Shown here: positions 1,625 through 44,245 of the stretch, one piece after another
Position numbering within the stretch: the first letter of the stretch is position 1
Layout of the letters: each line of letters opens with the position of its first letter
DNA from: a virus
Lineage: Duplodnaviria > Caudoviricetes
Length of the DNA stretch: 44,245 bases
Strand: one strand, 5' to 3'
Virus record (IMG/VR): IMGVR_UViG_3300034091_000010
Span: 1-44,245 of that record
Program-made: the position numbers and the translations under genes
Notes under the pieces: model-generated
Database searches by the model: none
Told to the model about the DNA's origin: nothing
What the model saw: only the letters and a program-made list of their open reading frames with translations

Positions 1625-3775
1625 ATCTATTCCCCTAAAATAATCGAGAGCAATATACGCTTCTATGAGGCAAAAAATGGAATAGAGTTGGTGCGCCATA
1701 GCTTTGAAGAGGTGCAGGAGTTTACTAAGGGTATTAAGTCTATAACAAAATTAGGTAGTAACTCAAAAGGTGCGTGGATAGAATCTGTCTCTCCTATGAC
1801 AGATAAAAGAAAAGAAGAGATACGCCGATGGATATTGAATGAGCAAATTCTATGCGGATTGGACTATAACTATTGGAGAGATAATTATGCTTATTGTGTG
1901 GATGAAGGCGGACAGATTGTAAAATTCAAGAATCGTAAATCTCAAGATGTATTTGATGCCATAGTCGCCGACCTAGAAGAACAACAGGCAGGTATACAAG
2001 TAATCTGCCTGAAGGGTCGCCAAGTCGGAATAACTACCTTGGTATCTCTATACTTTATTCACAGGATGTTATTTGTTCCTAACACTCTTTCAGTCATGGC
2101 ATCCGTTCAAAAGGAAAAATCAGACGAGATTAAGATAAAGCTAGATACAGCTTATGATATGTGTCCTTGGTGGTTAATTCCAGTTAGAACACCTAAGAAT
2201 AGTTTTGCTAATGGATCGCGTCTATCTATTGAATCAGGTATGCAGCCGAAAGGTATTGCGCAGGGTAAATCACCTACGCTTATTCATATTTCAGAAATAT
2301 CGCTCATTCCTAATCCTCATAATGTAATCGAAGAAGGACTGTTACCTGCTACTCACTCGACCAAAAATCTATTTATGGTATTTGAAGGTACAGGATCGGG
2401 GAATGTAGGATGGTTTCCTGATTTCTGGAGAGACGCTAAGAAGAACTGGCCGCTAGGATTAGCTAGGATGTGTCCTGTATTCCTATCTTGGCCCCTTGCA
2501 ACGGACTTATATCCAGAAGCAGATTGGCTAAGATTGCATCCTGTACCTGCCGGATTTTACGAAAGGCGCTTAGAAGCAACTCGCGCACATATAACGCGCT
2601 GTGAGTCATATATTCGCAATACTCCGTATCTTGCAAAGATAATGGGGTCTGATTATAGAGTTCCCATTGAGCAGCAATGGTATTGGGAGTTTGAATACCG
2701 ACAGGCAAAAGAGAGACACGCTTTACAGCAACACGCAGCCCGTTTGCCAGCAGATGACTTTGAAGCTCTTACCGGAGTCCATGATAGCGTCTTTGACCAA
2801 GAGACGATTATGGAATTGGAAGAGGATATTTACGAGGTTAGGACGGATGGATCGAAAGCGCGTAGGACTCCAATTCAAGCCTATGCGATTACAGGACACT
2901 CGATCTTGGAGGAGTTTGAGCCAAGAGAAGACCAAATTGACTTTAGCAAGGAAATTATCCACCTGACACACAGATCGAATCGTGATGAGCGATATGATTG
3001 GGAATTAGTACCTCTGCTTCCGATTGACGAGGAGACAGAATCATTTACATTCGACATATTGTTAGTTTATGAACCTCCAGTTAAGGGAGCAATTTATAGC
3101 TGCGGAGTGGATACGGCGCACGGATTAGGGAATGAGGACGAGGATAGGTTCTGTGCATCAATGACCAAAGTTGCAACGGGCGCAGGATGTGACCAGCAGG
3201 TTGCCGAACTAACTTCTAATAGATTCTCTCCCGCTCAGTCTGTTCCATTTCTTGCTGCTATGGCAACGTGGTACGGACAAATTTCAGGTCATTACAGAGG
3301 CGTAAAGTTTTCAATCGAGCAGGTAGAAGGTCCGGGAGATACCTGCCAGAACCAATTAAAGATCATGGGCTTTAATTATCACGCCATCCCCGGAAGGCTT
3401 GACGGCAAGAAGGTAAAAGAAGAGAACAAGCATAGAGAAGGATGGTATTCAACTAAAGTAACCGTACCAATTCTTATGGATCGCTTTGTAGAGGCAGTCA
3501 ATGGTGGATGGTATGTTCCTTTATCGAAGTGGCTGATAGAGGAGTTGAAGACTCTTGAGCGCCGCACGGTAGAGGGAGGAAGAGACAAAATGATTCACCA
3601 GCAGAACAAACATGACGATAGAATAAGGGCGGCAGCACAGAGTTATTTGAATTGTCACACGTATGATGACTTGTCTGCTAGGTCTCAGCGTAGGTATGCG
3701 CAGCCGAAAAAGAAGTCAACTGACCCCAACAAGGGGCGGTGTATGTCGAACACGTTTTCTGTAGGGGAATGGTGA
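1625..3775 (+). CDS. terL: terminase large subunit (probable ATC start at 1625)
   Basis: Walker A-like LKGRQVGITT, Walker B IHISE, coupling motif FEGTG, RNase H-like GVDTAHG and HDDRI. The frame is open upstream of TTG 1688 to a perfect AGGAGGT (1612-1618) 6 nt before ATC. Confidence 0.9.
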   Translation: MYSPKIIESNIRFYEAKNGIELVRHSFEEVQEFTKGIKSITKLGSNSKGAWIESVSPMTDKRKEEIRRWILNEQILCGLDYNYWRDNYAYCVDEGGQIVKFKNRKSQDVFDAIVADLEEQQAGIQVICLKGRQVGITTLVSLYFIHRMLFVPNTLSVMASVQKEKSDEIKIKLDTAYDMCPWWLIPVRTPKNSFANGSRLSIESGMQPKGIAQGKSPTLIHISEISLIPNPHNVIEEGLLPATHSTKNLFMVFEGTGSGNVGWFPDFWRDAKKNWPLGLARMCPVFLSWPLATDLYPEADWLRLHPVPAGFYERRLEATRAHITRCESYIRNTPYLAKIMGSDYRVPIEQQWYWEFEYRQAKERHALQQHAARLPADDFEALTGVHDSVFDQETIMELEEDIYEVRTDGSKARRTPIQAYAITGHSILEEFEPREDQIDFSKEIIHLTHRSNRDERYDWELVPLLPIDEETESFTFDILLVYEPPVKGAIYSCGVDTAHGLGNEDEDRFCASMTKVATGAGCDQQVAELTSNRFSPAQSVPFLAAMATWYGQISGHYRGVKFSIEQVEGPGDTCQNQLKIMGFNYHAIPGRLDGKKVKEENKHREGWYSTKVTVPILMDRFVEAVNGGWYVPLSKWLIEELKTLERRTVEGGRDKMIHQQNKHDDRIRAAAQSYLNCHTYDDLSARSQRRYAQPKKKSTDPNKGRCMSNTFSVGEW

Positions 3776-3791
3776 TTGAAGGGAGAGGACT

Positions 3792-4034
3792 ATGGGAATT
3801 ATTCGGTGGTGGAATGACGTATGGAACAAGCCAGAAAAGGCAGCACAGGAGCCTTCGATCAGTGACGAAATCCGCGTTGGCGGGTACATTCAAAGAGGCG
3901 GAGAAATCGTAGACCTAACCAACAGGCCGAGGAAAGAGAATGACGGCTTTGCGCCTGACAGCGAACTGCTGCATCCTTGGAACGAAGCGCACAGAGGGAT
4001 GAAAGAAGGACTAATGAGGGGCGGGAAACGATGA
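3792..4034 (+). CDS. hypothetical protein
   Basis: GGAGAGG RBS; 80-aa ORF coupled to the next gene by ATGA. Confidence 0.6.
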   Translation: MGIIRWWNDVWNKPEKAAQEPSISDEIRVGGYIQRGGEIVDLTNRPRKENDGFAPDSELLHPWNEAHRGMKEGLMRGGKR

Positions 4035-4243
4035 GCGATACAGCCATGAGGTTGAGTGGACCGTTCACAGCATATTGTGAACATTGTGAAATGAACTTTC
4101 AATCTCAACAAGGACTTAAAGCCGCTGTGAGACATCCTGTGCATGATGAATGGCCTGATATGAACCCACGATTGGCGGAACTCTATCTAAAATGTCCTAA
4201 TGCGGGGAAGATATTTAAGTTCCCGGCAATGGAGGAAGCATGA
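4031..4243 (+). CDS. small zinc-ribbon-like protein
   Basis: ATG 4031 (ATGA overlap); CEHC...H...CP motif. Confidence 0.6.
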   Translation: MSDTAMRLSGPFTAYCEHCEMNFQSQQGLKAAVRHPVHDEWPDMNPRLAELYLKCPNAGKIFKFPAMEEA

Positions 4244-4371
4244 AGTTCCTCAAACTCACTAAGCGCGAAAATGAGCATGAGCGTTGTCTATACCTTTGGA
4301 CACCGTGGTTTACGGTCGTACATGATTTCGGCTCTGTGCAATGCAGAGGGACAGACGAATTTGAGGTATAA
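4240..4371 (+). pseudogene. 43-codon ORF interrupted by the TnpB insertion; paralog of the N-terminus of 5537..6214
   Basis: MKFLKLTKRENEHERCLYLWTPWFTVVHDFGSVQCRGTDEF versus MNLIKIGKRENELERCLYLWTSWTTIVLDCGSIICKGSDEF: 26/41 identical by manual alignment. GGAGG RBS and ATGA coupling. Confidence 0.7.
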
Positions 4372-4372
4372 T
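4361..4372 (+). promoter_or_regulatory. -10 element for a probably leaderless tnpB transcript
   Basis: TTGAGGTATAAT, with TATAAT at 4367-4372, 5 nt before ATG 4378; no SD present. Confidence 0.5.
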
Positions 4373-5503
4373 TAAGTATGATTCGGACGTACACAATGGG
4401 CCTGAAAATCACTCGCAAGCAGGATGAGATGTTGACGCGTCTTCTCGTTCAACTGTGCGAGTTGTACAACATGGCGCTCCAGCAACGTATAGATGTATGG
4501 AAATCACATAGAACTAGTTTAACATTATATGACCAGCAGAAACAACTAACAGAGTTACGTGCTGGTATAGAAGAATATGCTCAAAGTCCGTTAAAGGTTC
4601 AACGCGATCCCCTCCGCCGTTTGGATCGTGCGTTTAAAGATTTCTTCCGCCGCTGCAAGTCTGGCGAGAATCCTGGATTCCCGCGATTTCGCTCTCCTAA
4701 GAGATATAATTCATTTACTGTAGATTGCGAAAGGTCATATTACCGGAAGGGAGAATTGCAAATTGTTAAACTAGGAAAATTCCGTGCTAAAACACGTTGT
4801 AAAATTAAAGGCAAACTGAAGGAAATACATGTCAAACGCTGCGGCCAGAAATGGCAAGCTCAAATAGTATGTGATATTGGTCCTGCTCCAGAAAAGATTG
4901 CCGTGCGCAATGCGGTAGGGATTGACTTAGGTATTACATCGCTTGTTACGTTGAGCGATGGCACTGAGATTAGCAATCCACGTTGGACGAAGAAAGAAGA
5001 AAAGAATCTTGCTGAAGCGAACCGAGATTTAGCACGGAAGCAAAAAGGCAGCAATAACCTCAAGAAATCTAAGGAGCGTTTACGCAGAGTGCATCAACAT
5101 ATTATGGGCTTACGCCATTCATATTTAATAAGTGTAGCGAAAGAGATTGTTTCCAAATATGATTTAATTGTGCATGAAGATTTAACCATTAGAAATATGG
5201 CGAGGTCTAATTATGCAAAACAAATTTTAGATGCCGCATGGGGGAAATTAATCAGACGGCTCAATTGTGAAGCAGAATACGCTGGCAAATGGGTTATTCC
5301 GGTTAATCCACGCGGGACGACGCAACGATGCAGTAGTTGTGGCGAAAAGGTGCCTAAAGAACGAAGAAATAGAATCCACAATTGCCCGAATTGTGGATTA
5401 GTTCTTGGGCGCGATCTCAACGCCGCACTGAACATACTTAGGCTCGGCGAGGGCCTTGTGGCAACGCAGAATGCTTGAAAGAAAATAGAGCAACCGCCCC
5501 GGT
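4365..5503 (+). mobile_element. minimal tnpB-only insertion (no tnpA), bounded by GGT on both sides
   Basis: GGT at 4365-4367 and 5501-5503. Joining them restores an ORF ending in an ATGA overlap with ATG 5537. Boundaries are inferred. Confidence 0.5.
4378..5478 (+). CDS. tnpB: RNA-guided endonuclease TnpB (IS200/IS605/IS607 OrfB family)
   Basis: N-terminal LYNMAL helix, PGFPRFRS, RuvC-I VGIDLG, RuvC-II IVHEDL, zinc finger CSSC...CPNC, RuvC-III RDLNAALNI. The D-E-D triad is intact. Confidence 0.95.
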   Translation: MIRTYTMGLKITRKQDEMLTRLLVQLCELYNMALQQRIDVWKSHRTSLTLYDQQKQLTELRAGIEEYAQSPLKVQRDPLRRLDRAFKDFFRRCKSGENPGFPRFRSPKRYNSFTVDCERSYYRKGELQIVKLGKFRAKTRCKIKGKLKEIHVKRCGQKWQAQIVCDIGPAPEKIAVRNAVGIDLGITSLVTLSDGTEISNPRWTKKEEKNLAEANRDLARKQKGSNNLKKSKERLRRVHQHIMGLRHSYLISVAKEIVSKYDLIVHEDLTIRNMARSNYAKQILDAAWGKLIRRLNCEAEYAGKWVIPVNPRGTTQRCSSCGEKVPKERRNRIHNCPNCGLVLGRDLNAALNILRLGEGLVATQNA

Positions 5504-5536
5504 CTTTTATTGTTTTAGTAGCAGAGAGAAGAGGAT

Positions 5537-6214
5537 ATGAATCTCATCAAGATAGGTAAGCGAGAGAACGAACTAGAACGTTGTCTATATTTATGGACCT
5601 CATGGACAACTATAGTGTTGGATTGTGGATCAATAATATGCAAAGGCTCAGACGAATTTGGATTAGTGATTAAATATAAGGTTTGGGGGTTTACGTTTTA
5701 TTGGGGGAACCGCGACATTGAAAAGCTAGGAGAAAGGTCGAAGTTCGATAGGCTCCAGTTTACGAAAATACAGCCACGTTATGCCGAACAGAGGAAGAAG
5801 AGGATTGACTCAAGGGACTATTACGAGGCTAAGGAACAAAAAGTAAGGCAGGGAAAGAAGAAAAACCCTGCGGACATGACGTACCCTGAGCGGCATCAGG
5901 AGACACTAAAGGTCATTAGCAAGATGGAGTTCAGCGAGAATTTTGTCCATTTAATGACTACGCCAGTTGCTAAACTAGCTTTGGAGCGCGGGGATATATC
6001 GCAGGACGATGTGACAGGAGAGATTCTGACGGAAGAGATTTACGAAAGAGAAAAGGCAAAAAATCTTCGTTTAGGAGTTCCTAACGCAGGGCTTTTAGGA
6101 TTTAAGAAGGCAGAAGAGGGTGAGGGATACGAGGCGATCAATATCCCCGGCTCGGAACTGAGACAGGTTGCAAGCAGCGTAGGACAAAAACTACAGTTGG
6201 AGGACGGACGATGA
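5537..6214 (+). CDS. hypothetical protein
   Basis: GAGG RBS, 225 aa, coupled to the next gene. Confidence 0.7.
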   Translation: MNLIKIGKRENELERCLYLWTSWTTIVLDCGSIICKGSDEFGLVIKYKVWGFTFYWGNRDIEKLGERSKFDRLQFTKIQPRYAEQRKKRIDSRDYYEAKEQKVRQGKKKNPADMTYPERHQETLKVISKMEFSENFVHLMTTPVAKLALERGDISQDDVTGEILTEEIYEREKAKNLRLGVPNAGLLGFKKAEEGEGYEAINIPGSELRQVASSVGQKLQLEDGR

Positions 6215-6438
6215 TAATACGTAAAATAGATGGAGAAGACGGGAAATGGTATGCTTTGGGAGCGGAGTTCCAGTTTGAGTGCTGTGATTGTGGTCTTGTG
6301 CATGACATTGAAATAAGAAAATTCAAAGGGAAGTTTCAAATAAGATTATTTCGTAATAGACGCTCAACTTCAGCGTCTAGAAGGGAAAGAAGAAAGCACA
6401 GGAGAAATAAATGGACTGCTTATACTAGAAGTCAATAA
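6211..6438 (+). CDS. small phage protein with CCDCGLVH motif
   Basis: GGAGG RBS, ATGA overlap, metal-binding-like motif, Arg-rich tail. Confidence 0.65.
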   Translation: MIIRKIDGEDGKWYALGAEFQFECCDCGLVHDIEIRKFKGKFQIRLFRNRRSTSASRRERRKHRRNKWTAYTRSQ

Positions 6439-6458
6439 CCCAAGTTAAAGGAGGGAAA

Positions 6459-7259
6459 ATGAGTACACAAACCCTGACTGACCGTATATCTGCATTAAAA
6501 GAGGAACTTGCCGCGCTCAAGAAAGAACGTAAACTGGCAGCATTTGCTCTAAAAATATCAAGAGAATGGTTGAGCGTTAAATATGGTCTACCTGACAGCA
6601 GCACCCAAAGGGCAATCGTCTGGTGCGGCCACGCAGAACAATGCTGGTGGAATAACGATAAAAAGCAATGGTTTGTCTTTAACGGGACATGGATGCTTAA
6701 CGATAAGGATAGGCTAGAAAACGTAACCCATTGGATGATGACCGATTGGATGCAGTCTGAATACTGGCCTTCCTACGGACCAGGACTCATGAATTATGTA
6801 CGCTACATCTGGCGGCGGTTCACCCAAGGCGCGACGGATATGGCTAGGGATATGAGGCCGAGAGGATGGTCAAGCAAGGCTCAACTAGACAAAAAACCAG
6901 TCTTTTATAGGGACGCATCAGGAAAGATTATGACCGGGATGCCTGAGAACGTCCCTGCGCCGAGAGGATACGAGAAAGTCGTTTGTGGTAGCGTACAAGA
7001 GGCAGAACGGTATTCGGAGATGCAGCGGCGACAGGAACGAGTAGAGCATCGTTACCAGCAGGAACAGCGTGGAGCCATAGAGGAGAGTTTCAAACAGGAA
7101 TGGCGCAGAGATGCTCGTACTTTAATGGAAAACGCACGGGACAACAAAAACAGGGAATTTATGAGAAGAGCCTTAGAACGGAACGCAGAGAGGAAAGACC
7201 CAACAGCGTTTGAACGGGAAAGCTACCTACATGCCGAGGCATTTGAAGATCGGCACTAA
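6459..7259 (+). CDS. hypothetical protein upstream of portal
   Basis: AAGGAGG RBS; 266 aa with a Trp-rich N-half and a charged helical C-half. Confidence 0.75.
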   Translation: MSTQTLTDRISALKEELAALKKERKLAAFALKISREWLSVKYGLPDSSTQRAIVWCGHAEQCWWNNDKKQWFVFNGTWMLNDKDRLENVTHWMMTDWMQSEYWPSYGPGLMNYVRYIWRRFTQGATDMARDMRPRGWSSKAQLDKKPVFYRDASGKIMTGMPENVPAPRGYEKVVCGSVQEAERYSEMQRRQERVEHRYQQEQRGAIEESFKQEWRRDARTLMENARDNKNREFMRRALERNAERKDPTAFERESYLHAEAFEDRH

Positions 7260-7267
7260 TAAAGGTG

Positions 7268-7296
7268 TAGACGGCTGATAGAAATTGGTTTATGAT
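7268..7296 (+). promoter_or_regulatory. sigma70-like promoter upstream of portal
   Basis: TAGACG-17 nt-TATGAT in intergenic DNA. Confidence 0.5.
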
Positions 7297-7362
7297 GCTC
7301 TTTAGTTGATTCTGGAATGGGAGCCGGAATCGAGGAACGCACCGGGAGGAATGCGAGTATGA

Positions 7363-9468
7363 ATGGCAACGTATATTGTTGGCCCAACGGCTGAAACAGA
7401 AACCGTAACGTGGCAAGTTCCGCCGTGGGAAGCTCTGCCGAGCCAGAAAATAGCTTGGGTTGAAGAGCAGATCAAAGAAGGCGAAGGCTACCTAAGCGGC
7501 CAGAAATGCTATACAAATCTAAATGCCAATCTGCGTGTCTTTGATGCAATTTTTAAGGATAAAACCAAGAGCGGATTAGTCACAAACCAATTAAAATACA
7601 ACGTCAGAAAATTTTGCGAGACTCTTGCCGAAGTACGCGAGATCGCCGGTTTCAGCAGCGACGTGCCAGCCTATAAAGCAATGGCGGAGATGCTTACAAA
7701 GGTCTCAAAGTGTGTTTATTTAGAGTCAGATTTCCCCTACCAAATCCTAAAGGTTTTGCAGTACGCTACGGTCATGGGCATAGGATACCTATGGCCTAAA
7801 GTGAGGCCGACGGAGTATGGCTTTGGCCCACGTGAGATGACCTTTGACGCGCTAGGATTATTAGACGTTGTTCCTGTCCAGATACCTGCTAGAAGCAATG
7901 ACGTACAGGATGCCTACGCGGTTACAGTATACGACTACATGCCGATTGCAGAGGCAAGCGCAAAATTTCCTCTGTTTCAAGGTCAGCTACAGACAGTCGG
8001 ACGTAACAATTACAAAACTCTGATTCAGGCGCAGCGGCAGGATTTTGCTGCCACATGGCGTTATGGGATGGTAGGAGATGTACAGAGCAGGAGTTTTGGA
8101 AACCTCTATACGGAGATAAGATACACGTTTATAAGAGATATACGGATCAACACAACAGGAAAAGAAATGCAGATGGGTGATCCGGGAACCTCGTGGTTCT
8201 ACAAAGTTCCCTTTTTAGGACAGCCTATTTTTGGAGGGATGAGAAATGGTGAACCTTACATGCGCCCTGCAATGGTGGAGGATTGTCGAATCTACCCTAA
8301 CCTACGGCTCATCATTACGTCTGCTGGACTCGACCGCCCGATGTATGACGGTACTTCCTTCGACTGGGACTCAAAGATACCTGTTATCCAGTACACGGTA
8401 GATGATTGGGCTTGGGAGGCGCTAGGACGTTCATTAGTAGGGGATGTAGCGTCAATTGAGACAACGATTAGGAAGCACGAAAGGCTCGTAGATCAAGTTC
8501 AAACGGCCAAGATGAATCCCCCAATGGGATACAACTTGGACGATAATGGAGGATCAAAGATTGAGCATTTTGACATCTTTGAGCCTAATGTAAGACTTGG
8601 ATTAACAGGTGGGGAGCCTACTAAAGAGTTCCAATCGCTTCTGCCTGATTCAGTGAACGTGACAAACGAAAACTGGACGCTGCTGAAATATCTAGGAGAC
8701 AAGGAACTTGCACAGCTTGGATTGAATGATGTTGGGAATCTTGCCAACCTAAAAATCAATATGAATAGCGATGCTGCGGATAAGCAGCTAGAAACTATTG
8801 GTCCTATCGCCAAGGGTATAGCGATGAGGATTGAAAAGGCCAACAAGCGTGTTGGCGAGAGGATGAAAAACCTCATTCCTCAGTGGATGGATGCGAATAG
8901 GCTTATCGAATACGTTGGTCCAGACCATATAGCCAAGGAAATGTTTGACTATAATCCAGACGATATGGTTCCTAGCCATCTTCCAGATGAAATGGTTAAT
9001 GGAGGATTCCCCACAACTCCTTCTATGTATGATCGTTTGACTAGGGCAAAGTTCTTTGTTAAGAAATTGAGATTGATTTCAGTTCCTAGCACGCTTTTGA
9101 AGATTACTCAGGCTCAAGAGCAATTGAAGTTTCTCCAGCTTAAAAGGACTCCAGACTGTCCGATCTCATGGGAAACCGTTTTTGGAAAGTTGGACATCCC
9201 TAACGCAAAGCAGGAAATGGAGAAATATTTCAAAGAGCAATTAGAGTTGACCAAGATGAAGATTCTTGCTGCGGCTATGGCAGCGGAGGAAATGAAGAAA
9301 CTTGGTCTACAACCGCCAGAGGAACATGGCGGAAAGGGCGGTGGAGGTAAGGGTGGAGGCGGAGGATTACACGCTGGCGGACGGCCTCCAAGTGGCGGCA
9401 AGCAGCCAAAAATATCGCAAAAGGGCGGAGCAGGCGGAGCGCCCAGGACTACGGTGAAAGAAAGTTGA
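7363..9468 (+). CDS. portal protein
   Basis: 701 aa between terminase and scaffold/capsid; helical and beta segments typical of podoviral portals; disordered Gly/Lys-rich C-terminus. Call rests mainly on synteny and size. Confidence 0.75.
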   Translation: MATYIVGPTAETETVTWQVPPWEALPSQKIAWVEEQIKEGEGYLSGQKCYTNLNANLRVFDAIFKDKTKSGLVTNQLKYNVRKFCETLAEVREIAGFSSDVPAYKAMAEMLTKVSKCVYLESDFPYQILKVLQYATVMGIGYLWPKVRPTEYGFGPREMTFDALGLLDVVPVQIPARSNDVQDAYAVTVYDYMPIAEASAKFPLFQGQLQTVGRNNYKTLIQAQRQDFAATWRYGMVGDVQSRSFGNLYTEIRYTFIRDIRINTTGKEMQMGDPGTSWFYKVPFLGQPIFGGMRNGEPYMRPAMVEDCRIYPNLRLIITSAGLDRPMYDGTSFDWDSKIPVIQYTVDDWAWEALGRSLVGDVASIETTIRKHERLVDQVQTAKMNPPMGYNLDDNGGSKIEHFDIFEPNVRLGLTGGEPTKEFQSLLPDSVNVTNENWTLLKYLGDKELAQLGLNDVGNLANLKINMNSDAADKQLETIGPIAKGIAMRIEKANKRVGERMKNLIPQWMDANRLIEYVGPDHIAKEMFDYNPDDMVPSHLPDEMVNGGFPTTPSMYDRLTRAKFFVKKLRLISVPSTLLKITQAQEQLKFLQLKRTPDCPISWETVFGKLDIPNAKQEMEKYFKEQLELTKMKILAAAMAAEEMKKLGLQPPEEHGGKGGGGKGGGGGLHAGGRPPSGGKQPKISQKGGAGGAPRTTVKES

Positions 9469-15943: not shown

Positions 15944-15956
15944 AAGGTGAGAAGTG

Positions 15957-16877
15957 TCATTCGTAATCGGAGCGCGGGAAGTTGGTGTAGGCGAACTCGT
16001 CAAGATGTTCGATTACCCACCTGTCGAAAGTTCTAGCGGCGGCAAGTTTTCCTTGCTCTGTGGCTGGAAAATACCCAAAATAAGCTCCCACCCCTTTGCG
16101 TCTAACATCACATGTCCATTTGTTATGTTCTTTATTCCAAGAAACTCCTTTGTATCCCGACTTATTTCTAATAGATTTCCCATGTTTTTGAATTCGCTTT
16201 GCGATTTCTTCATCAGAATAAGACGGGCGTGGAAAGTTGAGAACGGCATCGTCTCCGAATATTACAATTGCCCTACAATCTCTGGCGCGAGCAGCATCAA
16301 TTTCTTCTTTGAAATATCCAATACCTATTGTTTTTCTATTGGTCATAAGACAACTACGCCAGAGTTTTTCATGCTTAGCCCAAGAAACTCCGATGAATTT
16401 GGAAGTACAATCTTCACGTTTGGGGCGTCTTCGGCTACACTCAGAAATCTTTTGCAACCACTCCTTCGTATTATGAAAAATAATCATTTTTCGCAACGAC
16501 TCTGGTCTATGCTTAGAGCCTTTTTCCGCTCCATCTCCACCAGATGTGCCATTTGTAAGTTCGGGGTATCCAGGGATGCTTCGATAAAAAGCAATCCATC
16601 GCCTTTCAGCTTCCCGCCAAGCATCACTATGCGTTTTTTCGAGCAATATTATACTCGGCTTAAGTTCTTGTGCGAGGAGAGATTTAATCCAGTTAACTTT
16701 CTTTGTATTTGGAGAAAGTTCAAATTTAGAAAAATGGTCATTGTACCGGCGTTCAGGATCAACTGCTTTGCCGACATAGCGAATATATCCAGTTCGCGGA
16801 TCAACCAGACCATAGATAAATGCGGTATCATTGGATGGCGGCAGGACAATAACGTGTTCCTTCACGTTGTGTTTCAT
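15957..16877 (-). CDS. free-standing GIY-YIG homing endonuclease with two AP2-like DNA-binding domains
   Basis: FIYGL...YVGKA...R...H, EAERRWI, LTN motifs; AP2-like repeats SKFIGVSW...AARARD...NFP and SGYKGVSW...AARTFD...NFP. Confidence 0.88.
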   Translation of the reverse strand: MKHNVKEHVIVLPPSNDTAFIYGLVDPRTGYIRYVGKAVDPERRYNDHFSKFELSPNTKKVNWIKSLLAQELKPSIILLEKTHSDAWREAERRWIAFYRSIPGYPELTNGTSGGDGAEKGSKHRPESLRKMIIFHNTKEWLQKISECSRRRPKREDCTSKFIGVSWAKHEKLWRSCLMTNRKTIGIGYFKEEIDAARARDCRAIVIFGDDAVLNFPRPSYSDEEIAKRIQKHGKSIRNKSGYKGVSWNKEHNKWTCDVRRKGVGAYFGYFPATEQGKLAAARTFDRWVIEHLDEFAYTNFPRSDYE

Positions 16878-17019
16878 AAGGAACCCCTGTTCCTTGTGCG
16901 ACTGTCCGCCGCACCTTTATATTTTACCGCACTCATCAAGCGGCTGGGCTACCTGTTGATGCAGGTTGCGCATGGAATTACCTCCATTGTGCGGAGCCTA
17001 GCCGCACTTAACTCTTCTA

Positions 17020-17028
17020 ATTATAACA
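17020..17028 (-). promoter_or_regulatory. extended -10 promoter of the GIY-YIG gene
   Basis: Minus strand reads TGTTATAAT, followed by a structured leader of about 135 nt. Confidence 0.6.
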
Positions 17029-17043
17029 CGATGGAGGCATTAT

Positions 17044-18282
17044 ATGGCCTTCGTTAACATGGTTCAACAGATGTTAGGCATTGCGGGCATGAACAGGGGC
17101 CTTGCAGCTACGTTAATCAATGAAGCATACACCTCAATCCAAGACGAAAATGCTTGGAATTTCCAGATACAAACTGGAGGTTGGTTAACCCCTGGAATGT
17201 TAGGCGGACCAAACTCTAACTTTTTAAGTCCCGGCACAATTACCGTCACGCCATTCACAAATACGATTACAGGAGATGCGGTTGCAACAGCAGCATGGAC
17301 GGCAACAGTTCCTTACCCTCCATTGCTTACACAGCAGCAAATTCGTGTACCCTATTATAGCCTTTACAATATTATCGCGCTAGGAAACAACGGAACGGTT
17401 GCCTATGCGACAATCCTGAGCGGTGGTTCTTCGCAGACGCCGGGAACCTATGTTGTACCTATTCTTGACCCCGGAATAGGCGCAGGAGGGACTGTTTCGA
17501 TTACGGTTAATGCCAATGGAACGGTAACTCTCCCTCCTGTTCTTTTAACAGCGGGAAACAACTATACAACTCCGTACATTACGTTTTCGCATGGAGGAAC
17601 AGCAGCGAAGTTCTCGGTCACATTGATTGCAACGCTGACAATTGATAGACCATGGGGAGAGCCTCAAATCATCAACGGGGGCTATCTTGTGTATCAGTGC
17701 TATTACCCTGCTCCAGCAGGGTTCAAAAGATGGCAAACCATAGTTGACACGACTAATAACTCTCCTATGGATTGGTGGAGTATGACACAGGAGGATTTGT
17801 CACAAGAAGACCCGCAGAGGACCGAATTTGACCAGCCAACCTTCGTTGTACCCTATGGTCCTGATACTAGGCAAGGGAGTTCGACTTATGGGCAAATGTT
17901 GTACGAACTCTATCCTCATCCTTTAAGTCAACTTCCATACACGTTTATGTGTCAGTGTAATCTACCACCTCTTGTTAACCCTACAGACACAATACCTGCC
18001 CCACTTACAGAGGAGTTGGTAAAGTGGAGAGCAATGGAGGTAGCGTATTTGTGGCGTGAGAGCCAAAAAGGGGACAAGATGGAGCGTGGGTCGGGGGCTA
18101 ATTGGCAATTCTTAGCTGGTGCGGCGAGGGCTGAATACGATAATCGCCTCAAAAAAATCAGAATTATGGACCGGCACCTTGGAGACATCTATTTCACCAA
18201 AGCCAGAATGAATGGCACATACAACAACGATTCACACACTAACACTAACGGAACGGCTTCGGTCGGCTCATTTGACCGATAG
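17044..18282 (+). CDS. head-tail adaptor-like virion protein with inserted beta-rich domain
   Basis: GGAGG RBS; N-terminal LINEAY...W helix, ELYPHP motif and C-terminal helices typical of adaptor proteins. Confidence 0.6.
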   Translation: MAFVNMVQQMLGIAGMNRGLAATLINEAYTSIQDENAWNFQIQTGGWLTPGMLGGPNSNFLSPGTITVTPFTNTITGDAVATAAWTATVPYPPLLTQQQIRVPYYSLYNIIALGNNGTVAYATILSGGSSQTPGTYVVPILDPGIGAGGTVSITVNANGTVTLPPVLLTAGNNYTTPYITFSHGGTAAKFSVTLIATLTIDRPWGEPQIINGGYLVYQCYYPAPAGFKRWQTIVDTTNNSPMDWWSMTQEDLSQEDPQRTEFDQPTFVVPYGPDTRQGSSTYGQMLYELYPHPLSQLPYTFMCQCNLPPLVNPTDTIPAPLTEELVKWRAMEVAYLWRESQKGDKMERGSGANWQFLAGAARAEYDNRLKKIRIMDRHLGDIYFTKARMNGTYNNDSHTNTNGTASVGSFDR

Positions 18283-43044: not shown

Positions 43045-44245
43045 TTAACTGTGCTGTTGAACGATGCGTTCATCTGCTTGGTCTAAACTCCAGAGTAACA
43101 CATCACCTTGTCTGTAAAAGCGCCCATTCTTGTACTCCTGTTCCGTCATGCCAAACGCCTTACCTACGGCAGCGTAAACTCGCGTTTCATCATGAGATAC
43201 ACGCTGAATATACTGCTTTCCTGTACTCGGACAGGTCAACCTAACAAATCGGATAGGGCGATCCTCAAAGTCTTTCAGAAAAGAGGATTCCAAAAGTTCC
43301 GCTTGCTCCTCTCCTTCTTGATACTGTAAGGCGGCAGGATCAGAATTATCGACCAATTCTGACATTGGCAATACGGGAAATCTTGCTTGAAGTGTATCAG
43401 TGTGCAAGGTTTTCAGTTCTGAAATCTCAACAAACTTTGACCATCCCATACGTTCCACCATGCAGCGCCTTACCTCTGCGTTATCCTCCTTCTTGATTTG
43501 CTCAACGGTGATTGTATCTGGAGATTCAATCACCTGTGCAGGAACCGATGTACCGTGATAGGAGTAGATTTTCCATCCATCCTTGAATTCCATAGCTGGT
43601 AAGGATTCATGATGGAGTCTGCGTTGTTCGTCAATAGTACAACGAATAGGTCGTTCACTTACAAAGCAGAATCCTTCATACGGAAACCACCAATTTGCCG
43701 ACTCTGCAATGTCCTGCCACCATCCAAGATGCTCTGATTTCTCGTGATCGTAAGCAATCTTTAAGTGTAATTCCATGAAACGATAGAAGCCTATCCAGTA
43801 TTGTTCCTGCTGGCCCCAATAAGAACTCCCCAGAGAACTCCCCAGAGAACTCCTCAGAGAACTCCTCAGAGAACTCCCCAGAGAACTCTCCAGAGAACTC
43901 TCCAGAGAACTCCTCAGAGAACTCCCCAGAGAACTCCACAGAGAACTCCCCAGAGAACTCCACAGAGAACTCCTCAGAGAACTCTCCAGAGAACTCTCCA
44001 GAGAACTCTCCAGAGAACTCCTCAGAGAACTCCTCAGAGAACTCCTCAGAGAACTCCACAGAGAACTCTCCAGAGAACTCTCCAGAGAACTCCTCAGAGA
44101 ACTCTCCAGAGAACTCTCCAGAGAACTCCTCAGAGAACTCTCCAGAGAACTCTCCAGAGAACTCCTCAGAGAACTCTCCAGAGAACTCCACAGAGAACTC
44201 CTCAGAGAACTCCCCAGAGAACTCCACAGAGAACTCCCCAGAGAA
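43045..44245 (-). CDS. DUF6745-like protein with N-terminal tetrapeptide repeats (5' end outside the window)
   Basis: The frame of ORF 43045..43776 stays open upstream: ...(SSL[G/R/E/W])n-SSYWGQQEQYWIGFYRF-MELH...; WWFPY..FCFVSERP, LH....PA..F.DG..IY..HG, NAEVRR, CPSTG motifs. Confidence 0.85.
   Translation of the reverse strand, partial: SLGSSLWSSLGSSLRSSLWSSLESSLRSSLESSLESSLRSSLESSLESSLRSSLESSLESSLWSSLRSSLRSSLRSSLESSLESSLESSLRSSLWSSLGSSLWSSLGSSLRSSLESSLESSLGSSLRSSLRSSLGSSLGSSYWGQQEQYWIGFYRFMELHLKIAYDHEKSEHLGWWQDIAESANWWFPYEGFCFVSERPIRCTIDEQRRLHHESLPAMEFKDGWKIYSYHGTSVPAQVIESPDTITVEQIKKEDNAEVRRCMVERMGWSKFVEISELKTLHTDTLQARFPVLPMSELVDNSDPAALQYQEGEEQAELLESSFLKDFEDRPIRFVRLTCPSTGKQYIQRVSHDETRVYAAVGKAFGMTEQEYKNGRFYRQGDVLLWSLDQADERIVQQHS
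43822..44245. repeat. 12-bp coding tandem repeat, at least 35 units
   Basis: AGAACT-nnn-CAG with nnn = CCC, CCT, CTC or CCA; on the minus strand it encodes S-L-[G/R/E/W]-S. Confidence 0.97.

Follow-up and report, generated by a model that had tools for sequence, protein, structure and literature searches.

The phage record IMGVR_UViG_3300034091_000010 of IMG/VR, which was analysed over its whole length of 44,245 bp and is called the window here, carries between its terminase and portal genes a tnpB gene that stands inside a conserved phage gene, named gene X in the following. The locus was probably formed by one recombination event between two diverged phages which put the tnpB segment into gene X, with the right end of the element at position 5545 and the guide in codons 4-10 of gene X; a probability of roughly 0.58 is given to this reading. 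It draws on the remains of two differing copies of the 5' part of gene X, on a truncated left end of the element and on a right end that overlaps the start of the intact gene. The features concerned, with lengths in nucleotides (nt) or amino acids (aa), are as follows.

4240..4371, + strand: stub of the resident gene X, 43 aa; codons 1-42 (4240-4365) are family-typical and are followed by GTA and TAA from the left end
4360..4365, strand not applicable: left junction TTTGAG, a microhomology between gene X codons 41-42 and the inner left end
4366..4377, + strand: left-end remnant, with TATAAT (4367-4372) inside and the 22-nt terminal repeat absent
4378..5478, + strand: intact tnpB, 366 aa, identified by Pfam, alignment and structure match
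5424..5545, + strand: predicted scaffold of the guide RNA (omega-RNA), from the covariance model and the terminal motif, overlapping the 3' end of tnpB
5473..5516, + strand: extra hairpin-forming segment of ~43 nt after the conserved CAGAAT (5467-5472), absent from the relative L021
5530..5545, + strand: right-end terminus AGAGGATATGAATCTC, 14/16 identical to the L021 terminus AGAGCATATAAATCTC and holding the gene X ATG (5537)
5537..6214, + strand: full-length gene X, 225 aa; 5537-5545 is right end, codons 4-53 (5546-5695) are atypical, codons 54-225 typical
5546..5565, + strand: predicted guide, the flank directly after the right end, which would equal codons 4-10 of gene X

Gene X and its uninterrupted relatives

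Gene X belongs to a conserved family with 71 homologs in the protein database, for which no Pfam or PHROG match and no usable Protein Atlas match was obtained. In the related phages L010, L011 and L012 (two distinct sequences), a single uninterrupted gene X is present (222-225 aa, 79-80% identical) and there is no tnpB. The stub in the window corresponds to the N-terminus of this protein, with 35-38 of 42 aa identical to L010/L011 and 26 of 41 shared with the start of the downstream gene X (E 7e-19), and its open reading frame (ORF) ends at TAA 4369-4371 in the left end of the element.

An earlier note on this DNA had placed the ends of the element at GGT (~4365 and ~5501) and proposed an IS607-style excision that rebuilds a coupled gene of 54 aa, with a guide at 5503-5522 and a target-adjacent motif (TAM) ending in GAGG. 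The sequence does contain the letters quoted for this model, as well as the TATAAT and the ATGA overlap at 5537-5540, and the joined frame ends at a TGA overlapping ATG 5537. Since the empty sites of the relatives are the uninterrupted full-length gene, however, the proposed rebuilding by excision at GGT is wrong. What had been read as part of a joined 54-aa frame belongs to a 225-aa gene family, of which it forms the opening 42 codons, and the search for empty alleles suggested in the earlier note led to L010-L012, whose boundaries do not fit the GGT junctions. This model has become highly improbable, and both ends of the element add to the evidence against it.

The downstream copy of gene X keeps the invariant family residues K8, R9, N11, C16, W20, D29, G31, C35, G37, D39 and E40 as well as eight positions shared with 51-59 of 60 homologs, which suggests that the start region of the gene is translated. 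The database copy of this protein is 198 aa long and starts at the TTG of codon 28; this automatic gene call skips the conserved first 27 codons of gene X.

The mosaic structure of gene X

In its first 123 nt, the stub has 79-80.5% identity with L010/L011, which is also the level between L010 and L011. The downstream copy has 62-63% nucleotide identity to L010/L011 over the same first 123 nt and 75-79% over the rest of the gene. At the protein level, 33 of 53 residues are identical to L010 and to L011 in positions 1-53 of the downstream copy, as against 144 of 170 in positions 54-225 (p 8e-4), and the control comparison of L010 with L011 gives 47/53 in residues 1-53 and 134/168 in the remainder. 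When the consensus of the 60 full-length homologs (at least 80% agreement) is taken as the standard, the downstream copy departs from it at N2, S22, I26, L28, C30, S38, G42, V49 and F52, with no departure in residues 61-120; for the stub, one of 29 columns differs. Synonymous sites between stub and downstream copy are saturated (proportion of synonymous differences, pS, 0.80), and the nonsynonymous divergence (dN) is 0.06-0.11 for the stub and 0.27-0.29 for the downstream start. Because pS is saturated and the dN of the stub is ordinary, the two copies are best regarded as old, separately selected alleles that were joined recently, and not as a fresh duplication. These figures indicate that the stub belonged to a working gene until recently.

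The same duplication could have arisen without a foreign donor, if the insertion duplicated the 5' part of gene X, or if tandem copies existed and a deletion took the end of the first copy plus the left terminal repeat, and the downstream codons 1-53 then diverged fast. Such an origin would sit well with the atypical N-terminus, of which residues 1-60 have no match in a database of 5.8 billion proteins and no counterpart in the 60 full-length homologs, so that a donor lineage would have to be wholly unsampled; a search of IMG/VR with the N-terminal 48 aa gave nothing beyond the identical contig. Diverged repeats would also guard tnpB against loss by recombination between the copies. The saturated divergence between the copies is nevertheless coupled to a stub which still looks selected by its dN and its consensus match, and an old duplication should have let the stub decay. 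Moreover, gene X is single in each of the three related contigs, and the invariant family residues kept in the downstream start argue that it evolved under selection rather than by free drift. A history without a donor is thus rated as distinctly improbable, and recombination between diverged phages remains the preferred explanation. A real flanking duplication was found in the window only, among the 58 loci listed for this test; the runner-up duplications in other TnpB loci were rejected as low-complexity translations with stops.

The left end of the element

Relatives of the tnpB were taken from 7 loci of IMG/VR and from the best 80 of 159 confirmed metagenome stretches. Their 3' regions were inspected at 49 loci, 38 of which were taken into the search for the right-end boundary, the other 11 being left out because the motif was absent, the region was rearranged or the locus was a duplicate. 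The search gave 36 distinct ends, as L024 gave none and L041 is a duplicate of L040.

An inverted copy of the right end, 22 nt long, forms the left end of 16 of these 36 relatives; it matches at 18-20/22 positions in 14 elements and at 14-15/22 in two. This terminal repeat is absent from the window. The left end of the nearest complete relatives consists of the 22-nt terminal repeat followed by ...CC(T)TTTGAGGTA(T/C)(A/G)AT..., with ~26-42 nt in all before the start codon, and those of L017-L019 read CC(T)TTTGAGGTA. The window keeps just the inner 12-18 nt of this structure, in which the 14-mer TTTGAGGTATAATT is identical in L019 and GGTATAAT is present also in L020 and L021 (and L019). Gene X reads GAA-TTT-GAG at codons 40-42, which places the junction somewhere in TTTGAG (4360-4365); the gene X relatives read GAATTTGAA / GAGTTCGAG at this position. 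An extension of the gene X homology to 4377 with a 1-nt deletion was dropped, as the left ends of the relatives show that TTTGAGGTATAATT is element sequence.

The ribosome-binding motif GAGG (4363-4366) spans the left junction and, compared with the relatives, is element left-end sequence together with TATAAT (4367-4372). The TATAAT was not called by a promoter scan. With the 22-nt terminal repeat lost, the element cannot be moved by an enzyme that recognises its ends, and the copy in the window is no longer able to transpose.

Exact 8-bp direct repeats flank 4 of the 16 relatives with inverted ends (L018, L020, L035, L059), and 0-3 nt are repeated in the other 12. The inverted ends and 8-bp repeats look like those of cut-and-paste (DDE-type) elements, not of IS200/IS605. 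By eye, flanking repeats of 7 and 9 nt are seen in L019 and L053. The other 20 of the 36 relatives fail the left-repeat test, as the window does (L021 and L036 among them); by eye three of these are left-end-like, and for two the upstream sequence is shorter than 50 nt. The start codon of tnpB in L036 and the stop codon of the preceding ORF overlap (ATGA), and an ORF of >816 aa begins at an ATG placed 8 nt ahead of the right end.

TnpB and the absence of a transposase

The TnpB of the window matches the Pfam families OrfB_IS605 (PF01385, 1.6e-24) and Cas12f1-like TNB (C-terminal zinc-ribbon, PF07282, 1.2e-20), and its nearest solved structure is ISDra2 TnpB (8bf8/8exa/8h1j), with E 2.8e-49 over residues 9-362. 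D183, E267 and D346 and the cysteines C318/C321/C336/C339 are invariant in an alignment with three phage homologs, and the acidic residues line up with DLG, ED and RD.NAALN of a solved TnpB-like nuclease. They presumably form the catalytic D-E-D triad, and the cysteines the C4 zinc finger, as in ISDra2 TnpB. Judged by its sequence, TnpB looks functional as a protein, and the nuclease system is given slightly better than an even chance of being active.

The record holds a single tnpB copy and neither a Y1 transposase (PF01797) nor a serine recombinase (PF00239). Among the 35 window ORFs of at least 130 aa, tnpB apart, no transposase family was matched and no DDE transposase was found. The flanks of the relatives gave no Y1 transposase, serine recombinase or DDE transposase in the scanned 138 of 161 ORFs of 115-330 aa at 44 loci. 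The best relatives of the TnpB are 73% (L021), 70% (L016) and 67% (L003) identical, and the base composition of tnpB is like that of the phage (40-44% GC). In the prokaryote genome set, tnpB matches do not exceed 32% identity, save for one 26-residue fragment at 54%, and no gene X is present. This tnpB clade may live mainly in phages.

The right end, the guide-RNA region and the predicted guide

All 36 distinct right ends of the relatives stop sharply at ...TATAA(N)TCCC, and the flanks beyond are unrelated. Of these ends, 34 went into a covariance model, L031 and L049 being left aside for their long insertions. It contains three covarying stems, in which 92% of cells are paired and 13 of 17 pairs have changes on both sides, a result that none of 500 shuffles equalled. 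This model has one significant match in the window (5424-5522, 27.7 bits, E 2.9e-5), the next having E 0.59, which argues that the guide-RNA region is present; in the alignment, every modelled pair, those of stem 1 included, is a standard pair.

The family right-end motif was located at 5535-5545. In a position-weight scan with the last 14 right-end columns, 5532-5545 (AGGATATGAATCTC) ranks third over both strands of the whole window, with a score of 11.4 in a family range of 3.8-23.8, and it is the sole 14-mer starting within 5465-5550 that scores above -6. For natural gene X starts, the scan gives 1.6, -3.5 and -3.9. The terminus further shares its TCTC ending with L021, an ending found in none of the other 35 ends. 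A right end at 5545 (ATATGAATCTC) is quite probable, and its placement is based on the 16-nt match and the rank statistic. In the light of the terminus scan and the comparison with L021, ends near 5500 or at 5522 were ranked below 5545.

If the right end lies at 5545, the gene X ATG (5537-5539) and the next two codons are inside it, and a purine insertion of 7-8 nt is predicted to form a ribosome-binding-like tract just upstream of this ATG. TnpB guides are, according to published work, taken from the DNA that follows the right end, which would put the guide at 5546-5565. With up to 3 mismatches allowed, no second copy of this sequence occurs in the window. Its agreement with the stub and with L011 is 12-13 of 20 positions (counted from the alignment), so that the resident-type alleles seen would not be targets. 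The 16-nt guide seed has 15 matches in IMG/VR, of which 14 are unrelated and the sole real one is the identical contig. For the ~43-nt segment at 5473-5516, neither the rest of the window nor the collected loci hold a second copy, and it contains no copy of another phage gene. The 16-mers of 5479-5545, compared with the stub, L010, L011 and the downstream gene, reach at best 11-13/16, which is within the shuffled range. A match of 5503-5512 (TCTTTTATTG) to codons 53-56 of the L010 gene X, with TTTTATTG occurring again at 5696-5703, was set aside as within chance.

Duplicated 3' structures were observed in two relatives. At L038:2058-2131, one right-end module (…TATAATTCCC) is followed by another (…TATAAGCCCC), which looks like a tandem duplication of the guide-RNA end, and at L023:3440-3700, a tnpB with an internal stop is accompanied by the conserved 3' stretch GATCACAACGCC…GCCTTGCC in two copies.

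The two ends of the element bear directly on the model of the earlier note. Its right boundary at CGCCCC-GGT (~5500) is displaced by ~45 nt from the family motif at 5535-5545, and its guide at 5503-5522, which matches gene X alleles no better than shuffled sequence, lies inside the scaffold region and is better placed at 5546-5565. The TAM ending in GAGG is without basis, because GAGG belongs to the left end of the element, and the TATAAT said to straddle the junction lies within that left end, as in L019, L020 and L021. An IS607-style GG core is contradicted by the lack of a serine recombinase and by the fixed terminus and 22-nt inverted repeat of the relatives. The covariance model which the note had proposed as a check did find the scaffold region; the terminus scan and the match to L021 put the right end best at 5545 and not at ~5500. 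The description of a tnpB with an intact D-E-D triad and no tnpA is upheld by alignment, Pfam and the transposase scans, as is the observation that almost no left end is kept, and what is published on other TnpB proteins makes this one, by analogy, a candidate RNA-guided nuclease. The boundaries that had been guessed from short repeats are wrong, and the "rebuilt" 54-aa gene does not exist.

A model for the origin and function of the locus

In the proposed sequence of events, the element would have stood at the very beginning of a diverged gene X in an unsampled donor phage. A segment of ~4366-5695, consisting of the truncated left end, tnpB, the guide-RNA region, the right end and the donor gene X to about codon 53, would have been copied into gene X of the resident phage during co-infection. 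The left join may have been made through the TTTGAG microhomology, and the right join by a homologous crossover near the conserved FYWGN codons (~5696-5720). The outcome would be a whole gene X, a tnpB stranded without its left repeat and the 5' end of the resident gene left behind as the stub. The last 9 nt of the right end are predicted to supply ATG-AAT-CTC of gene X, and TnpB would be guided by an RNA ending in 5546-5565. If the guide RNA is still made, TnpB would then cut donor-type gene X alleles that lack the element and thereby favour its retention or spread, an effect described for IS605-family TnpB. A further-reaching reading, in which the conversion of the right end into the start of gene X (with the purine tract, the ATG and two codons in the scaffold and codons 4-10 as the guide) makes the element a gene drive, is considered unlikely.

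Several observations weigh against this model. No donor-type phage or allele was found in IMG/VR, the protein database or the prokaryote genomes, for which reason the foreign origin of codons 1-53 is drawn from their divergence alone. The covariance model, aligned end to end, stops at 5522, which is weak evidence for a boundary as the alignment was forced end to end, and an alternative end near 5500 retains the terminal CCC. ATG-AAT-CTC is one base from natural MKL-type gene X starts, so that part of the right-end match could be native. Compared with L021, the scaffold has ~43 extra nt and the purine insertion of 7-8 nt, and its predicted fold is no more stable than shuffles (z -0.06 and -1.36). 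In addition, the whole reading is based on one locus and two distinct empty-site relatives.

The state of the scaffold also bears on the possibility that the anatomy is as described but the nuclease system is dead or idle. The guide RNA would then have been destroyed by the recombination and the scaffold insertions, tnpB would be a recently stranded passenger or serve another role, and the gene X start derived from the right end would be a tolerated scar. The two extra segments and the unexceptional fold stability are what would be expected of a dead system, as are the lost left end and a terminal hairpin that retains 5 of 7 pairs (read from the alignment). Set against them are the intact 366-aa ORF with its catalytic and zinc-finger residues kept, the standard pairs throughout stem 1 and the rest of the covariance-model alignment, and a terminus conserved at 14 of 16 positions with L021; the phage-like GC content of tnpB suggests long residence in such phages and not decay. 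Inactivity is rated as rather unlikely, and the transfer of a segment between diverged phages is retained as the account of the locus.

Comparison with known systems

The TnpB/omega-RNA system of ISDra2 (IS200/IS605) shares with the window the protein family, the domain order, the D-E-D residues and the C4 zinc finger. It also has the same plan, in which a structured RNA region extends over the 3' end of the gene to a sharp right end and the guide is expected from the right flank. A homing role is described for IS605-family TnpB in excerpts of PMC10055086 and PMC10690162. Unlike in IS200/IS605, there is no TnpA in the window or in 138 flanking ORFs of the relatives (44 loci), and the left end of the window is truncated. 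IS200/IS605 elements have, according to an excerpt of PMC13565253, neither inverted repeats nor target duplication, whereas the relatives have 22-nt inverted ends (16/36), with 8-bp flanking repeats in 4 of these.

According to an excerpt of Altae-Tran et al. 2023 (PMC10691335), DDE-associated TnpB branches and some solo ones have inverted ends. The relatives resemble these branches in part, namely in the inverted repeats around a solo tnpB, in the position of its 3' end near the transposon end and in the 8-bp direct repeats that flank some of them. They differ from the DDE-associated branches in that no DDE transposase stands beside the relatives within the scanned size range (ORFs of 115-330 aa), and the copy in the window has lost one repeat.

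T-even phages have free-standing homing endonucleases, whose "intronless homing", in which flanking DNA is co-converted, is described in an excerpt of PMC13565253. As in that process, the nuclease gene in the window is wedged between and inside conserved phage genes, the donor-type flank is carried along, and self and non-self would be told apart by sequence differences in the neighbouring gene. In contrast to it, recognition would be RNA-guided, the available alleles of the relatives are not expected to be cut (12-13 of 20 guide positions), and the resident sequence was kept as a stub and not replaced, which implies that one of the two junctions was illegitimate.

IStrons are IS605/IS607 elements fused to group I introns, as stated in an excerpt of PMC10690162. 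They are similar to the window element in being inside a gene and harmless to it, but here the harmlessness would come from a replacement translation start and not from RNA splicing, and no intron was found by Rfam in positions 4000-6000. The prophage e14 and phage 21 integrate in icd of E. coli and bring with them a diverged replacement gene end. As in the window, the insertion brings a diverged copy of the displaced gene part and the displaced part is left behind; e14 and phage 21 use an integrase and replace the 3' end, whereas the window has no recombinase and the 5' end is replaced.

Genomic setting and distribution

The record comes from a peat-soil phage with a completeness estimate of 45%, and its genes are chiefly on the + strand. 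Lysozyme-type genes are found further downstream in the window. The neighbours of the locus are as follows.

1688-3775: terminase large subunit, family match
3977..4243, + strand: upstream phage gene W, 88 aa, from the ORF list; its stop overlaps the ATG of the stub (ATGA 4240-4243)
7363-9468: portal gene, family match

Gene W has no family match, and its stretch is without counterpart in L010-L012. In the sequencing run X1, a contig of a related phage leaves the window sequence at 4026 and enters the start of gene X directly (…ATGAAGCTCC…), from which it follows that this phage lacks gene W.

The same arrangement is carried by a second contig of 12.3 kb that is 100% identical over 4,501 nt, and it is also present in contigs of four peat runs, two of which hold the whole stretch and two fragments; the former two may be the source samples. 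In the contigs of these four runs, no joint that bypasses the insertion was found, and none of the sequencing runs matching the locus is listed as of RNA type. GenBank phages gave no blastn match to window positions 3000-7500, and Rfam gave no family and no group I intron for positions 4000-6000 at E values up to 10.

Two observations were made elsewhere in the window. An ORF of 306 aa on the - strand (15957-16877) has GIY-YIG (1e-05) and AP2 (8.3e-06) domains, a combination typical of free-standing phage homing endonucleases, and lies antisense to a + strand ORF of 367 aa (15954-17057) without a family match. Positions 43905-44214, close to the end of the record, contain short tandem repeats (units like GGAGTTCTCTG), which surfaced as weak spurious matches of the RNA covariance model.

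Significance

If the preferred reading holds, the locus is a natural example of a transposase-less TnpB that persists in a tightly packed phage operon, where its own right end starts the interrupted gene and its guide equals the first codons of that gene. Recombination between diverged phages, and not transposition, could then move such elements. The locus also offers a concrete sequence for RNA-guided homing between phages, an idea raised in reviews, with the guide, the stub and the mosaic tract as its markers. Should the further-reaching reading be true, the element would act as a harmless gene drive directed by RNA, which passes from phage to phage during co-infection through the cleavage of element-free alleles, and the production of the guide RNA and its binding by TnpB would be tied to the translation of gene X.

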